Source: a virus
Taxonomy: Duplodnaviria; Caudoviricetes
Reading direction: 5' to 3' (one strand)
IMG/VR virus record: IMGVR_UViG_3300035698_013504
Span: 136,904-200,903 of that record
DNA length: 64,000 nt
Positions 3,007 through 47,025 of this stretch are shown here, piece by piece. How positions within the stretch are numbered: the first letter of the stretch is position 1; the number at the start of each line of letters is the position of its first letter. A program made the translations under genes and the position numbers. The notes under the pieces are model-generated. The model saw only the letters and a program-made list of their open reading frames with translations, searched no databases and was not told where the DNA came from.

Positions 3007-3348
3007 GTGGTAGGCCGCGATAGAAGACTGTACATCGAGCTTTTCCACGGCCGTGAAGCCGGTGACGAGCTGGAGGATTGGGGAGAACCCGGGCCGGTTT
3101 TTGGTCCATGTTGTTGGGTACACACAACGTACGCGAACCACATTCGTGGTGGCGATGATGACGGTGAGATTTTTGAGGTCTTCACCGAAGACGATATGAT
3201 CTACTACGACGGGATGTGGTACGGAGACTGGTCGATCTTCCCTGTCGGAACGTTTGAGCAGGAGAGTGACCTACGCCAACGATTGACCATATTTGACCCA
3301 GAGCTGGCTAAGATACCGGAGAAGACGCATGGCGAAGAAGAAGGTTAA
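3007..3348 (+). CDS. Hypothetical protein
   Basis: ORF in operon flow, overlaps start of next gene. Confidence 0.65.
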   Translation: MVGRDRRLYIELFHGREAGDELEDWGEPGPVFGPCCWVHTTYANHIRGGDDDGEIFEVFTEDDMIYYDGMWYGDWSIFPVGTFEQESDLRQRLTIFDPELAKIPEKTHGEEEG

Positions 3349-40847: not shown

Positions 40848-40876
40848 TTGACAATCAGCAACCACCATGCTAAGAT
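40848..40876 (+). promoter_or_regulatory. Sigma70-type promoter of the RNA island
   Basis: TTGACA-N17-TAAGAT with extended TG. Confidence 0.75.
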
Positions 40877-41056: not shown

Positions 41057-41428
41057 GGGGGTGAAAGGTATCGACAGGACGACTGAAGTATAGACGGCGT
41101 GCCGGAGTTGACCGAATGGCTCCGTTATCAAATCGGTTACACTTAAATTAAGTGACGAAGTTCCCATGCTCGCCGCTGCATAGCGGCCTCGGCCCAAGCG
41201 AGATTGCCTTGGTAGCTTGACGCTGAGACCATACAAAGGTTGACTGCTGGCAAGACAGCGGACATCTCCGGAAAGACGGGGTGCGGGATGGTCATACCCG
41301 CATACAACTCTGACCAAGGCTGCCTGGATGAGCCTGGTGACGTTTGGCCGAATCGCCTGGCTACGCACGTAGATGTTTATATCGAGGACGTAACTGGACC
41401 GGATTTTCAATGATCCGCACCTCCACCA
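41057..41428 (+). ncRNA. ssrA: tmRNA
   Basis: 5' GGGGGTGAAAGGTATCGAC; 3' CACCTCCACCA; 7-bp acceptor stem with G3-U; tag ORF 41154-41183 DEVPMLAAA*; 372 nt. Confidence 0.93.
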
Positions 41429-42074: not shown

Positions 42075-42095
42075 TACACAACACTTCAGGGTGTA

Positions 42096-42215
42096 CTTCA
42101 GGTAAGGGATACTTCAATCAACTCTGCAGGTTACCGGTTCGAGTCCGGTTGCGTACCTTCGGGGCGCATAGCTCAATCGGTAGAGCGGCAGATCCAAAAG
42201 ACCCTCACCGCTTTT
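42096..42215 (+). ncRNA. YrlA-like RNA with circularly permuted tRNA domain (module copy 2)
   Basis: Order: module 5' strand, anticodon-stem 3' strand TCTGC, variable loop, T arm ACCGG-TTCGAGT-CCGGT, acceptor stem closed by cUUCGg, D arm GCTC...GAGC, GCAGA, module 3' strand. Confidence 0.85.
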
Positions 42216-42240
42216 CGTCACCCTTTTCATTACAAGTTAG

Positions 42241-42384
42241 CATGGCGGCGGTGTGGAAGGACACACCCCATGACAGATGGACGCTGCGGAATAACAGACG
42301 GCAGGCAGCACGTGCCCTAATAAGGTACGGGCGGTCACGGCCGAATACGTGGCACTAGTCGGTTTCGAGTCCGGCACGCCGTGT
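42241..42384 (+). ncRNA. tRNA-like RNA with expanded central domain
   Basis: 7-bp acceptor CATGGCG/CGCCGTG, 6-bp D-like stem, T-like arm with 8-nt loop; four hairpins in place of the anticodon/variable arms. Confidence 0.7.
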
Positions 42385-42427
42385 GTTTTGTCTCTACTGA
42401 TCTTTACGCTTGTTGCCTTAACTTGAC

Positions 42428-42568
42428 GGGGAGTTACTGGATCAGTGTCCGGACACAATTCGGTTTTGAGCCTACGTACGTGGGTGATGCCGTGGAATGC
42501 TTACGCTGTACAGAAGACACTGAGCTCAAAGCGATGCATTTCGGCCAGTCGATACGCTCTCCCCACCA
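42428..42568 (+). ncRNA. CCA-ended structured RNA with acceptor-like stem
   Basis: GGGGAG pairs with CTCCCC followed by A-CCA; nested stems ACTGG/CCAGT and CAGTGTC/GACACTG. Confidence 0.65.
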
Positions 42569-42587
42569 TTTTAGATAGGAGACCCAG

Positions 42588-42919: not shown

Positions 42920-43345
42920 ATGGGCTCTACACCAAGCAATAAAGACGGCGGATGTTCTCTCTTACATGACCTTTGGAGAAGGTCTGTAGGTATGGAACCC
43001 AGACCGTCTACGGTGTTGATGCCCGATCTTGCATCTCTGAGGCAGACCGAGTGGTCTGATACGTTCGAGCAGTACATGCGCAACAGACTCGTCTTCGGGG
43101 CCGTCAGGTACGGCCTGGTTGGCGACAAGGGCAAACCCCGGTACGACCGGATCAAGTCGATACGCCAGAGACTTGACGCGTACGAAGAAACGGGGAATGA
43201 TGAACATCTGGTAGACGTCGCGAATATGGCCCAGCTCGAGTTTATCGAGGGGATTCATCCCAACAAGCATTTCGCGTCTATCGATGACGGTGTTCACACA
43301 CCAGTTTGCTCAGGTACTCTTCAGGCACGGGTTACTTCCCTTTAG
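42920..43345 (+). CDS. Conserved phage protein, possible nucleotide pyrophosphohydrolase-like
   Basis: MRNRLVFGAVRYG...EHLVDVAN; the last codons overlap the 5' end of an RNA module. Confidence 0.6.
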   Translation: MGSTPSNKDGGCSLLHDLWRRSVGMEPRPSTVLMPDLASLRQTEWSDTFEQYMRNRLVFGAVRYGLVGDKGKPRYDRIKSIRQRLDAYEETGNDEHLVDVANMAQLEFIEGIHPNKHFASIDDGVHTPVCSGTLQARVTSL

Positions 43346-43438
43346 GAGGGCGAGGTCATGGGTTCGAATCCCATTACCCGACTAATACTCGGGTATAGCT
43401 CAGAGGCAGAGCGCGCTTGTAAACCTGTACCGCTTTTT
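43319..43438 (+). ncRNA. YrlA-like RNA with circularly permuted tRNA domain (module copy 3)
   Basis: GGGCG/CGCTT anticodon stem, AGGTC variable loop, T arm ATGGG-TTCGAAT-CCCAT, perfect 7-bp acceptor TACCCGA/TCGGGTA closed by a loop, D arm GCTC...GAGC. Confidence 0.88.
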
Positions 43439-43480
43439 GGTGCCGAGCATTTTCTTTTGAAGCGGCGGCGGACGTCAGTC

Positions 43481-43579
43481 CAGCGTATGGTGTAACGGTT
43501 AACATTCTGTCGAAACAGTTACTCTCTGACGAGATTGGCTAAAGTAGGCGGGCTACGGGTTCGAATCCCGTTGCGTAGC
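43481..43579 (+). ncRNA. tRNA-like RNA lacking a canonical anticodon arm
   Basis: Acceptor CAGCGTA/TGCGTAG, D arm GTGT-AACGGTTA-ACAT, T arm ACGGG-TTCGAAT-CCCGT; 49 nt with short hairpins between D and T arms. Confidence 0.7.
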
Positions 43580-43609
43580 TGCTTCACATTTGATGGGACG
43601 ATGGTATAC

Positions 43610-43652
43610 CTTCAGCGGTGGGTTACTTCAATTGCTGAAAAAACCCCACTGC
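43610..43652 (+). ncRNA. CUUCAG-N8-UACUUC stem module, copy 4 (short)
   Basis: cttcag cggtgggt tacttc aattgctg aaaaaa ccccactgc. Confidence 0.6.
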
Positions 43653-43710
43653 ATCTATTGGACCTAGTCCCTCCTTATTGTTCTGCCCTGGAGGTTATAC
43701 CACCTCCCTC

Positions 43711-44052
43711 TGTCCTTTAGCGGGGATGGACGTCTAACGTCGCTGGCCAAGCGGCTGTAGACGCTAATCAAATAGGTCTCGCCACCCGGGCGAGTAGGGA
43801 TGTAGCTACCGAAAGCGCGCACCTTGATCTTTGGATATAGGGTGCAATCGATTAGTAGGTGTACGCCATCTTTCTATCATAGGTTCTTAACATGCTGCGG
43901 TACCACAGCTATGCCTGGATCACCGGTACGGACTTCGGTCCGGGGCAGTTCATCTTATTACGTTTGCCGCTGGGGTTCCCTCGTTAAAGTGGCCCGCTGC
44001 GGCGCCGCCCCCTCGGCGCCGTTTCGAAGGGCCTCAGCGGCTCTACAGGACA
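43711..44052 (+). ncRNA. Unknown ~340-nt multidomain structured RNA
   Basis: Closing stem TGTCCTTTAG/CTACAGGACA; nested GATGG/CCATC, CTAATC/GATTAG, CGTCTA/TAGACG, GCACCTT/AGGGTGC, CGGAC-TTCG-GTCCG, CCGCTGGGG/CCTCAGCGG. Confidence 0.65.
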
Positions 44053-44195: not shown

Positions 44196-46022
44196 ATGGC
44201 ACGATCGTTCCGCCGTATCTTGCGCGACGGCGCGCGAAAGAACGCGTTACCTTCCAACCGCCCCGATGCCACGGTTAACCGAGCTGGCGGCGTCTCCTTC
44301 GAGATCGCCGACCCGGCTACCAAGCTCATCACCATGACTGGTGGGGCGTTCTTTGGTGAGCCGAGGTTCTATTCAGGTTCCGACTGTGTACCCGTCCGGT
44401 CGTTCGGCGGGGCGTTCGCACCCTTGCAGGCACGTCTGGAGATCGCCAGGGACAAGTCTGTATCGTTCGCACGCTGCGAGGAGCTCGATGACACGGCACA
44501 GGAGATCATCGCAACGATCTTGGCTGTGCTCGATGGCGACACCCCAGAAGATGCGTTGGTTATCGCGGCGTGGCTGCGTAACGACGCAAACATCAGGCTC
44601 ACCCCCCAGGTGATCCTCACGCTTGCCGCCAATCACGAGAATGGCAAACCCTTCGTGCGCAAGTATGCGCCGAAGATCATGCTACGTCCGGATGAGGCGA
44701 AGACGAACCTCCTGTTGCACCGGTTCTTCTTTGGCTCGCGTAACCTGCCGAATAGCCTCAACAAAGCCATCGGTGACGGAGTCGCTCGCTTTGGCGAGTG
44801 GGGACTCATCAAGTATGATACGCCCTCCTTCCCCCGCTGGAAGGATGTGCTTCGTTGGATCAAGCGCCGCAACGGGTGGCCCCTCTCAAGAGGGCTGGCC
44901 CGCTACTTCACCCATGGTGAGGTGGATCGTGACGCTACTCCGATCGCCTATGCTCGCAGCCTCTTGGCTCAGAAGACTACCTTCGACACCGAGACTCGCG
45001 AGTTGATCACGGCCAGCCGTGCGACCTGGGAAGTCGTGATGTCTCAGTTCGGCCCACAGGACAAGACACGGGCCTGGGAGTACCTGGTTTTCGAGAACCT
45101 GTTGGGCTATATGGCCACGATGCGCAACCTGCGTAACATGGCTCAGGCCAACGTCAGCTCCCTGTGCGTCGACGCCGTTTGCAGAAAGCTTGTCAACCCC
45201 GAGGAAGTGGCAACAAGTAGGCAACTGCCTTATCGCTTCCTTGCCGCAAACAATGCCCTCTGGGGTAGCCCCGATCGGTTTGGTGGCAACAGCCGCGATA
45301 ACCGCATGGTGTCCCAGTGGCGCGTTAACCCGGTTGTTGGCGGGGGAGGCCTCTCCGGCTTCCGCGGGCTGAGTAAGTTCACAGATGCTCTCGATGAAGC
45401 CGCGGACATGTCCGTGAAGAACGTGCCTGTGTTGCCGGGCCAGACGGCCGTCCTTGTGGACGAGTCCAGCTCTATGCGTCAGCCGATCTCGGAGAAGTCG
45501 CAGATGCTAGTCTGTGACGCGTCGAATATGCTGGCGGGTATTATCGGGCGTGTCTCGGCCGATACGATCCTGTTGCCGTTCGGTGGTACCGTCGAGCATG
45601 TCCCCTGTCGTCATAGGGATACGGTGATCAGCATCGCAGAGAGGTGCGCGGCGGCCAATGTCGGCCACTCGACGAATACGTACCTCGGTATCCAGTACCT
45701 GATCGACAACGACATCGCGCCCGACCGGATTGTCATTCTGTCGGATGCACAAGCGTGGAACAGCTACAGCCGATCGTCGGGCTCGTTGCCTGACACGGTA
45801 CAGCAATACCGCCGCGGTTCGGCGATTGCAAAGGACACATGGATTCACAGTGTTCACGTCAACGGTTACGGCGACGACCCTATCCCCCCCGGTCCCCGTG
45901 TTAACCTCGTTTCTGGGTGGACGGACAAGATCGTGGACTCCATGCTTCACTGCGAAGGTGGCGTTGAGGGAGAAGAAGCGCTGGCGACCATCGACTACAT
46001 CAGAGCCAGGTGGTGTAATTAG
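44196..46022 (+). CDS. Ro60/TROVE-domain RNA-binding protein with vWA domain
   Basis: NRAGGVSF, FFGEPRFY, RNDANIRLTP, KYD, TWE, YMATMRNLRNM, LPYRF, vWA VDESSSM and LSDAQ. Confidence 0.92.
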   Translation: MARSFRRILRDGARKNALPSNRPDATVNRAGGVSFEIADPATKLITMTGGAFFGEPRFYSGSDCVPVRSFGGAFAPLQARLEIARDKSVSFARCEELDDTAQEIIATILAVLDGDTPEDALVIAAWLRNDANIRLTPQVILTLAANHENGKPFVRKYAPKIMLRPDEAKTNLLLHRFFFGSRNLPNSLNKAIGDGVARFGEWGLIKYDTPSFPRWKDVLRWIKRRNGWPLSRGLARYFTHGEVDRDATPIAYARSLLAQKTTFDTETRELITASRATWEVVMSQFGPQDKTRAWEYLVFENLLGYMATMRNLRNMAQANVSSLCVDAVCRKLVNPEEVATSRQLPYRFLAANNALWGSPDRFGGNSRDNRMVSQWRVNPVVGGGGLSGFRGLSKFTDALDEAADMSVKNVPVLPGQTAVLVDESSSMRQPISEKSQMLVCDASNMLAGIIGRVSADTILLPFGGTVEHVPCRHRDTVISIAERCAAANVGHSTNTYLGIQYLIDNDIAPDRIVILSDAQAWNSYSRSSGSLPDTVQQYRRGSAIAKDTWIHSVHVNGYGDDPIPPGPRVNLVSGWTDKIVDSMLHCEGGVEGEEALATIDYIRARWCN

Positions 46023-46052
46023 ATGTAGCACCACCACAAACAAATACGCAAG

Positions 46053-46089
46053 GAGCTGGTCACACGTTGTGACCAGCTCTTGTTCTTTA
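46053..46089 (+). terminator. Intrinsic terminator after TROVE
   Basis: 12-bp GAGCTGGTCACA/TGTGACCAGCTC stem followed by TTGTTCTTT. Confidence 0.8.
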
Positions 46090-46110
46090 GTCTCGCCTCA
46101 GGAGGGTACG

Positions 46111-47025
46111 ATGACCATCGTGACTCATGGTGGTACGGCCCACGCCGATGAGGTCATGTCGATTGCGCTGCTCGTATTGCGTGATGAGCATGTCCGCGCG
46201 GCGTACCGAAGACAGGCCCTCGATATCAAACGTGTCGCAAACTTCATGGATGACACGATTGCCCCGGGCGACTGGGTGTTGGATGTCGGGCTGATACATG
46301 ATCCCGAACGTTTGCGATTTGACCATCACCAGCAAAGGCCGCCCGTTGATAGCACGTTCAGTTTGCTCGCTAAGCATTTCGGGCTACATGAGACGCTGTC
46401 AACATGCACCTCGTGGTACAACCAGATCGTGTGCGTAGACGTACACGGCCCTATAAAGTACATGGAGAGCCTTGGGTTCTCAGACCCTACGATGGATACA
46501 TTCACCAGTGTGTTCAGCACCAGCATCCTTCAATGGTTTGTCACTCAGTTTGAGCGCCTGCCCATTGTTGGTATTGACTTGGCCGTACCTTGGCTAACCG
46601 AGCGTATCTCTGAGGCCCAGTCGATACGACTACGAGTTGATGAGCTGCTGGACACGGCGTCGGTATTTGGTAACGTAGTTGTCTTCCCGGATGCCGCGAC
46701 ACCTTTCGGCACAGGTTTGGCTATTCGCGAGCTTGTCTCGAGAAGTGATGTCTTTCTTGACATCGCCGTATCTATTCTCCCTGACAGTCGTGACAAAGGC
46801 ATGTGGTCGCTTATGCGGCTAGACGACGACGCAAGGGTAGACATGTTACGCATCGAAGAATTACCCTTTGTGGAGTTCGTACACGCCAACGGCTTTCTTG
46901 CCAAGGTGCGGTGCTCACTTCCTGAGGCTATTCAGCTTGCACAACAAACCATAAGGGAGGACGATGAGGATGTCTGGGAACGAAAGCACGACCGATGGCT
47001 TCAAGGAAAGCCTGGAAGATCTTAA
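46111..47025 (+). CDS. MYG1-family (UPF0160) nuclease/hydrolase
   Basis: VTHGGTAHADE, VLDVG...DP...FDHHQ, FVHANGF. Confidence 0.8.
   Translation: MTIVTHGGTAHADEVMSIALLVLRDEHVRAAYRRQALDIKRVANFMDDTIAPGDWVLDVGLIHDPERLRFDHHQQRPPVDSTFSLLAKHFGLHETLSTCTSWYNQIVCVDVHGPIKYMESLGFSDPTMDTFTSVFSTSILQWFVTQFERLPIVGIDLAVPWLTERISEAQSIRLRVDELLDTASVFGNVVVFPDAATPFGTGLAIRELVSRSDVFLDIAVSILPDSRDKGMWSLMRLDDDARVDMLRIEELPFVEFVHANGFLAKVRCSLPEAIQLAQQTIREDDEDVWERKHDRWLQGKPGRS

Follow-up and report, generated by a model that had tools for sequence, protein, structure and literature searches.

Why should a phage keep the body of a tRNA that cannot decode, and where may such a body come from? The question is raised by a tRNA-like element located at positions 43481-43579 (plus strand) of the window, as we call the whole stretch of 64,000 nucleotides analysed here, which makes up the final 64 kb of a virus record of 200.9 kb, a complete one bearing direct terminal repeats. 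The sequencing runs in which the window is contained are salt-lake metagenomes. An earlier, sequence-only reading described the element as a mimic with canonical D, T and acceptor arms, in which the anticodon arm had been replaced by two small hairpins, and proposed, on the basis of a further element at 42241-42384, that decoding arms had been repeatedly and specifically lost, with protection against PrrC/VapC-type tRNases as a possible benefit. The analyses reported below point to a different source. The element is probably a tRNA mimic derived from a Y RNA of the YrlA type, and laid out in ordinary tRNA order.

The tRNA frame and its 49-nt middle

The Rfam tRNA model (RF00005) aligns to 43481-43579 end to end, with a score of 24.2 bits (E 9e-4) which is below the cut-off of 29. 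This is the sole Rfam tRNA match in the complete 200.9-kb genome, where neither ARAGORN at default nor the Rfam model identified canonical tRNA genes; ARAGORN at default calls no gene at the element either. The acceptor 5' strand (43481-43487) pairs with the 3' strand (43572-43578) at 6 of 7 positions. In between lie the D arm (43490-43505; pair probabilities 0.74-0.78), a middle of 49 nt devoid of an anticodon loop (43506-43554) and the T arm (43555-43571), and a discriminator C (43579) closes the frame, all features being on the plus strand. Tertiary invariants are found both on the D side (U8, A14, the A15-U48 Levitt pair, G18, G19 and A21) and on the T side (G53, U54, U55, C56, R57, A58 and C61), and the 12-bp acceptor/T stack has 11 of its 12 pairs and a perfect T loop. 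The frame, the two arms and the elbow are hence as first described, but the acceptor is not canonical. It includes C1-G72, an A2·A71 mismatch which adjoins the predicted RNase P site, G3·U70 and U6·G67; a CCA end is not encoded, and two bulged registers are 0.7-1.7 kcal/mol lower in energy. Taken as a whole, the element is no more stable in folding than shuffled versions of itself (z 0.19). Over 43216-43532 a contig from a different run is identical, so that this part is not an assembly error, and no variant was found within 43481-43579 in four DNA runs compared to the region, where covered (the listed pieces omit 43533-43575).

The 49 nt separating the D and T arms, a length given correctly at the outset, lack the 5-bp anticodon stem, the 7-nt loop and U33, and the element is, as judged from its letters, unable to decode. 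The two 4-bp hairpins on which the sequence-only reading insisted are spelled by the sequence, at 43507-43518 and 43523-43534, but only the latter is predicted to form. Hairpin 2 (4 bp, 4-nt loop, plus strand; P 0.93-0.99) is the only stable terminal loop in the middle, while the pairing probability of hairpin 1 is ~0.01, whether or not the cloverleaf is enforced. The folding model favours a long irregular arm, in which 43507-11 pairs with 43547-51 and, past an internal loop, 43517-21 pairs with 43536-40, hairpin 2 being at the tip. The long arm is predicted at -22.2 kcal/mol versus -14.8 for the two-hairpin form, a difference of 7.4. The two hairpins account for 24 of the 49 nt, and the last 20 nt of the middle are used by the long arm only. 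Two disjoint 4-bp hairpins were observed in 0.6% of the shuffles if loops are of 4 nt, and in 8-10% if loops of 3-8 nt are admitted. Neither predicted fold contains a 7-nt anticodon loop.

A decoding tRNA could yet emerge from the locus by splicing. At a relaxed threshold ARAGORN draws a 26-nt intron at 43481-43579, the removal of which would give a tRNA with a CUA-reading loop. The same setting, however, produced 260 calls genome-wide, nearly all spurious. The spliced form would have no U33, and three G·U pairs in a 5-bp stem; a bulge-helix-bulge is not apparent, 26 nt are too short for self-splicing, and the core of the element is YrlA-like, as described below. The pattern of spurious calls, the poor spliced stem and the YrlA-like core led us to reject an intron-containing tRNA gene, which we deem extremely improbable. 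An open reading frame overlapping the element (43535-43720) was discarded as well, as it has no PHROG match and crosses two RNA elements.

The RNA cluster upstream of the Ro60 gene

The element resides in a cluster of RNAs spanning from a sigma-70-like promoter match to a Ro60/TROVE gene (44196-46022, plus strand), which encodes a protein of 608 aa (Pfam TROVE, E 2.5e-20; vWA_Ro60, E 1e-5) with homologs at most 49% identical. The promoter (40848-40876, plus strand), at the head of the cluster, features an extended -10 element (10/12 with TG); it is a consensus match only, and promoter-like sites across the region are not above the number found in shuffles. We infer that the element is transcribed. 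Besides a tmRNA (41057-41428), the cluster includes three short Y RNAs and a pair of permuted YrlA-type RNAs. YrlA copy 1 (42085-42224, plus strand) matches RF02553 with 34.8 bits (E 1e-4); copy 2 (43308-43449, plus strand) does so with 29 bits (E 0.005), and is sustained also by its fold. A short Y RNA with no tRNA module is found at 43600-43660 (plus strand; fold z -3.1). All the five Y RNAs of the phage carry the motif CTTCAG ... TACTTC, and rank 1-5 genome-wide according to a Ro60-motif weight matrix built exclusively from 212 sites of other Ro60 loci (copy 1 is first, the 43600-43660 RNA third, copy 2 fourth). The element starts ~32 nt after YrlA copy 2, ends ~20 nt before the next short Y RNA, and is separated by 617 nt from the TROVE gene, which lies downstream and on the same strand, a distance within the ~4 kb expected of YrlA RNAs. 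Searches in which controls were positive detected no SmpB, RtcB or CCA-adding enzyme in the phage genome.

Other features of the region deserve mention. A gene for a MYG1-family exonuclease-like protein (45730-47025; Pfam E 2.4e-11) lies directly behind Ro60, and its product is a candidate nuclease partner of Ro60/Y RNA particles. The final codons of a 141-aa gene (42920-43345) overlap the 5' strand of YrlA copy 2; homologs of this gene (51-64% identity) sit in an unrelated phage context. The 42428-42570 segment has a 6-bp G-rich terminal stem and an encoded ACCA end, and lacks a T loop, its ends being tmRNA-like. Just 5' of the element, pairing is possible between residues 43461-43468 and 43964-43971, and the 16 nt of 43461-43476 are nearly repeated at 43719-43734; the likeness of these residues to a tRNA-Met 5' end is not significant, or marginal.

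In related phages the position occupied by the element often hosts a true tRNA. In 12 distinct related loci the 3' stem of a Y RNA is followed, at 5-18 nt, by the start of a tRNA-Met, and a tRNA-Asn is found 64 nt behind the YrlA of locus L021. In the phage under study a mimic in tRNA order is found behind each YrlA, at 16 nt from copy 1 (42241-42386, plus strand) and at ~32 nt from copy 2. The two mimics share nothing but this position, shortly 3' of a YrlA. The middle of 42241-42386 is unrelated to 43506-43554 (P 0.48) and has no Y motif, and the pair can hardly be quoted as a case of repeated loss of the same arm. In the Ro60 tree, a quick version in which the window falls outside all starred groups, at the end of a long branch, the nearest subclade (L001, L002, L006, L190, L191) features three short Y RNAs and no tRNA at this place. 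Such RNAs can thus mature without a tRNA mark, and the arrangement is common, not required.

The order tmRNA, Y RNA, initiator-type tRNA-Met, Ro60 is conserved across one subclade of phage Ro60 genes (L003, L010, L011, L016, L018, L022, L027, L033, L049, L085-L088, L095-L097, L102, L164 and L189). tRNA-like elements with long middles and an encoded CCA also occur near tmRNA and Ro60 (L097:5749-5921, L106:4294-4456, L011:5560-5830 and L096:6040-6280). Their middles measure 113 nt in L106 and 120 nt in L097, and the L097 element, which has G3·U70 and A73, may be alanine-chargeable.

Kinship of the core and possible traces of a Ro60 motif

In sequence, the core of the element resembles YrlA cores more than it does any decoding tRNA. 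The segment including variable loop, T arm and acceptor 3' strand (43548-43580, plus strand) is paralogous to residues 42126-42158 of YrlA copy 1. Identity extends to 27 of 33 positions, as against a mean of 15.6 and a maximum of 23 for 624 other T-arm segments; if the flanks only are compared, 17 of 22 positions are identical, and the best other segment has 12. A joint score, in which both halves of the core are considered and their order is ignored, was calculated against ~370 tRNA-like cores from the comparison loci (denoted by L numbers), the maximum attainable being 53. The best match (38.5/53) is with the YrlA of L021, which belongs to the same Ro60 clade; the score in the 5' half (acceptor strand plus D arm) is 19.5/26. 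Mean scores are 24.5 (sd 3.2) for YrlA RNAs and 24.8 for tRNAs. Some tRNAs score 34-37, but come from loci fetched by the D-arm pattern of the element itself, and are hence biased; outside these loci, the best tRNA scores 33/53. G3·U70, G5-C68 and A7-U66 are common to the element, YrlA copy 1 and the L021 RNA. The D arm does not resemble its counterpart in YrlA copy 1, and with a different nearest relative for each half the element may be a mosaic.

Pairing in the core has been maintained in spite of sequence changes. Relative to YrlA copy 1 and to the L021 RNA the element has 6 and 10 stem differences, respectively, yet 11 of the 12 acceptor/T-stem pairs are kept, with 2 and 4 double compensatory changes versus the two nearest cores (P 0.008 and 0.001 if changes were placed at random). 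Pairs kept through double changes argue against free drift. Along with the intact elbow invariants, they uphold the notion, put forward in the sequence-only reading, that the retention of a non-decoding RNA at this site is not random. Kept pairing may stem from an ancestral YrlA rather than from this copy; the best hint of a change within the lineage of the element itself is C1-G72, which replaces the G1-C72 of both nearest cores. That reading was to be abandoned if relatives carried an intact tRNA at this place and this copy had drifted unconstrained. Many relatives do have an intact tRNA behind a Y RNA, though none is in the nearest Ro60 subclade, and the element does not look like a sequence drifting without constraint.

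What has not been confirmed is the source of the loss. The nearest cores are those of YrlA RNAs, in which a Ro60 handle stands at the corresponding place, and the missing arm is probably such a handle rather than a decoding arm. A descent from the tRNA-Met genes that accompany the Y RNAs of relatives was considered and rejected, as core scores are at background (21-27.5/53) and the 5' half does not differ from shuffles. Similarly, a tRNA-Met remnant sought in the spacer at 43450-43480 was not significant (P 0.06-0.39). No full-length homolog of the element was found by nhmmer over 169 comparison loci; of two pattern scans of viral contigs, one retrieved long-variable-arm tRNAs alone and the other nothing, blastn against phage records the T arm only, and a sequence-index search the same genome only. 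RF02553 finds no match at 43481-43579.

The 49-nt middle retains traces plausibly left by the handle. Residues 43507-43524 (plus strand), which include hairpin 1, resemble, in an eroded form, the 5' strand by which Y RNAs bind Ro60: TACT is kept, the invariant TTC is broken, the upstream YAG is changed, and the distal helix is absent. The profile HMM score is 4.5 bits (P 0.005-0.009), and the best local alignment has P 0.006-0.018, both tests having been picked after the likeness was noticed; the ungapped score of the full motif is at chance level (genome rank 3243). Because the tests are post hoc, and the full motif does not exceed chance, the remnant lends modest support. It lies 31 nt 5' of the T arm, a distance ranging from 10 to 55 nt in YrlA-type RNAs, and the short Y RNA of L121 can be aligned over most of the middle. 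Hairpin 2 occupies the place of the anticodon-like hairpin found 3' of the motif in related Y RNAs, and its 4-bp stem is present also in L054, there with a 7-nt loop. Hairpin 1 is either the stump of the first helix of the handle or a by-product of the letters of the motif, which by itself forms this hairpin in 3 of 224 true motifs. As a separate observation, the hairpin located between the Ro60 motif and the T arm in YrlA-type RNAs often exhibits a 7-nt anticodon-like loop, of the Thr, Ile, Ser or Tyr type (L135:231, L123:855, L054:6826 and L067:2240 are examples). The variety of types suggests that these loops may have originated repeatedly, from different tRNAs.

RNAs in which the parts of a YrlA follow the ordinary tRNA order exist in an intact form elsewhere. 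Beside more distant Ro60 genes we identified 12 such RNAs (L054:6750-6877, L055:7612-7739, L067:2163-2292, L123:783-906, L124:6761-6897, L137:6482-6608, L145:8487-8613, L146:1489-1615 and 1693-1817, L152:2928-3049 and 3057-3180, and L154:1081-1208), which combine an open 7-bp acceptor with a 73-87-nt middle carrying a full Ro60 handle and the invariant TACTTC. In their alignment (A2, n=12) double changes are found at 18 of the 23 predicted acceptor/handle pairs. A candidate in L058 was excluded, being an artefact of tandem YrlA genes. No description of these RNAs was found in the papers searched. Their existence indicates that such a permutation occurs in nature, and they are better examples of it than the element is. 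A model built from the 12 RNAs (R1) assigns 80-125 bits to the training members and 25-56 bits to ordinary tRNAs. It does not recover the element, yielding only a chimeric match of 18.3 bits at 43393-43579. The element is not a member of the tRNA-order Y RNA group and, by the tests run, it is not a member of tRNAs or YrlA RNAs either.

These data bear on the hypothesis that the element may be a working, short Y RNA in tRNA order, bound by Ro60 via a variant site in the predicted internal loop of the long arm. The motif remnant and the location among five Y RNAs, upstream of Ro60, are in line with this hypothesis, as is a GNCGAA sequence at 43509-43514, bordering the predicted internal loop, which starts with a CGAA run, since GNCGAA/CGAA runs have been described for YrlA sites (PMC4201824, PMC12135203). 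GNCGAA, however, is expected by our estimate in ~4% of 49-mers. TACTTC, invariant in the five Y RNAs of the phage, is broken in the element, the upstream element and the distal helix are missing, and the R1 model fails on the element even though ordinary tRNAs obtain a sizeable score. Overall, a working Y RNA at 43481-43579 appears improbable.

Proposed origin and retention, and known counterparts

How a YrlA may have turned into the element can be envisaged as follows. The tail of one YrlA-type gene, providing the acceptor strand and the D arm, would have been joined to the head of a neighbouring copy, providing the Ro60 motif strand, the variable loop, the T arm and the other acceptor strand. 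The trimming of a tandem YrlA pair would correspond to the usual duplication route to circular permutation, and would have opened the acceptor end. The Ro60 handle, left at the anticodon position, would then have worn down to a remnant probably unable to bind Ro60. The acceptor/T stack and the elbow would have been retained because host RNase P and tRNA end-processing enzymes read them. With the precursor cut at 43481 and trimmed 3' of 43579, YrlA copy 2 would be separated from the Y RNA downstream, a role like that of the true tRNA behind Y RNAs in related phages. Once released, the RNA, whose acceptor is weak and lacks CCA, may be degraded soon, or persist as a mimic of the tRNA elbow. The acceptor-T stack is known to be read by RNase P (PMC10424219), the YrlA of M. 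smegmatis is an RNase P substrate, and the Y RNAs of D. radiodurans are co-transcribed with tRNA-Asp (PMC4201824). On the other hand, the route requires two deletions and a ~15-nt insertion, the A2·A71 mismatch may make the element a poor RNase P substrate, no full-length homolog is known and the model of tRNA-order Y RNAs does not retrieve the element, and, to judge from the nearest Ro60 subclade, Y RNAs can mature with no tRNA mark. While an origin from YrlA is in itself probable, the origin and the processing role taken jointly make a tentative proposal, to which we assign somewhat less than an even chance.

The same remnants could be those of a decaying relic, either what is left where two YrlA copies met or a pseudo-tRNA, now devoid of function, in which pairing and invariants have been inherited and not yet eroded. 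The mismatched acceptor, the missing CCA and the broken Ro60 motif are what decay would produce. The fold no better than shuffles, the score under the Rfam cut-off and the lack of homologs are also in keeping with a relic, and a phage carrying five intact Y RNAs could dispense with a sixth. Yet about 13 tertiary invariants are all intact though the middle has been heavily changed, the C1-G72 pair, which is G1-C72 in the nearest cores, has been formed across open ends, and a second mimic is found in the equivalent position behind the other YrlA. We consider a relic unlikely, though it is the chief competing reading.

G3·U70 is the main determinant recognized by alanyl-tRNA synthetase. Its conservation in the element, in YrlA copy 1 and in the L021 RNA, in a phage which has no decoding tRNA but hosts a tmRNA and Ro60, may hint at a stable counter-defence mimic, CCA-added and perhaps alanylated, which would soak up host factors binding the elbow or the acceptor, or toxins targeting tRNAs. 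The discriminator is however a C, not an A, the acceptor is mismatched, and neither a CCA-adding enzyme nor RtcB was found in the phage. Moreover, G3·U70 is present also in closed YrlA stems, where charging is impossible. As for the decoy of PrrC/VapC nucleases initially imagined, it is poorly supported, because the anticodon loop cut by these enzymes is absent from the element; phage escape from anticodon nucleases, as described, relies on decoding-competent tRNAs with altered, resistant loops (PMC11455837). A counter-defence mimic is in our opinion a doubtful interpretation, with little probability.

The YrlA origin may be combined with some of these traits. In such a scenario a Y RNA would have been turned back into an open-ended tRNA body, stripped of the Ro60 handle and kept as a mature RNA, CCA-ended and possibly charged with alanine, which would both punctuate the Y RNA transcript and act on host proteins involved in tRNA handling or defence. 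So rich a scenario has a slim chance of being correct. If true, the element would define, along with 42241-42386, a class of tRNA mimics lacking a handle and located in the Ro60 clusters of phages. The purpose of the tRNA-like module of Y RNAs, and the interconversion of Y RNAs and tRNAs, are an open question (PMC4201824). Should the YrlA origin proposed here be correct, the element would be a snapshot of the reverse path, in which a permuted YrlA becomes a tRNA body that is open and handle-free; should the processing role hold as well, phages could use non-decoding tRNA bodies to cut RNA operons. As a single copy for which no full-length relative was found, the element makes a less convincing case than the intact tRNA-order Y RNAs of other loci, and may simply be decaying.

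The element may be compared to several known RNAs. Like YrlA RNAs (RF02553; PMC4201824; bioRxiv 10.1101/312249), it is located less than 1 kb upstream of Ro60, on the same strand, has a tRNA elbow with the Levitt pair, a YrlA-like core and no anticodon loop, and carries a trace of the Ro60-binding 5' strand. In YrlA RNAs the T arm precedes the D arm and the acceptor is closed by a loop; in the element D precedes T and the acceptor is open, the terminal Ro60 stem is missing, the invariant motif is broken, and RF02553 is not matched. The YrlA of M. smegmatis, which is cut by RNase P and CCA-added (PMC4201824), similarly has a free acceptor end, a tRNA-like body and a non-decoding anticodon position. 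It is made however of two pieces derived from a permuted gene, and keeps the Ro60 stem (PMC4201824), whereas the element is encoded in one piece and in tRNA order, its handle being worn and its acceptor mismatched. In D. radiodurans, Yrn1 and the RNAs a and b beside rsr are likewise non-decoding RNAs carrying a T arm in a Y RNA cluster; the cluster, a polycistronic one, comprises a tRNA besides the Y RNAs, and the binding of Rsr by RNAs a and b is weak (PMC4201824). As in the element, D precedes T in Yrn1 (PMC4201824), but the acceptor position is closed there by the Ro60 stem and the D arm is partial; the likeness considered here is one of architecture. The mascRNA of human MALAT1 and the Men-beta RNA of NEAT1 are tRNA mimics freed by tRNA-processing cuts, and the unstable acceptor of Men-beta marks it for decay (PMC10424219). 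These RNAs differ in origin and host, and processing, shown for them, is conjectural for the element, so that the analogy is functional only. A last comparison is with the 12 tRNA-order Y RNAs. Unlike them, with their 73-87-nt middle and 7-bp acceptor, the element has 49 nt and no distal helix, but the order of the parts is the same, and the register of the C-G0 helix and the small hairpin after the motif remnant appear to be in matching places.
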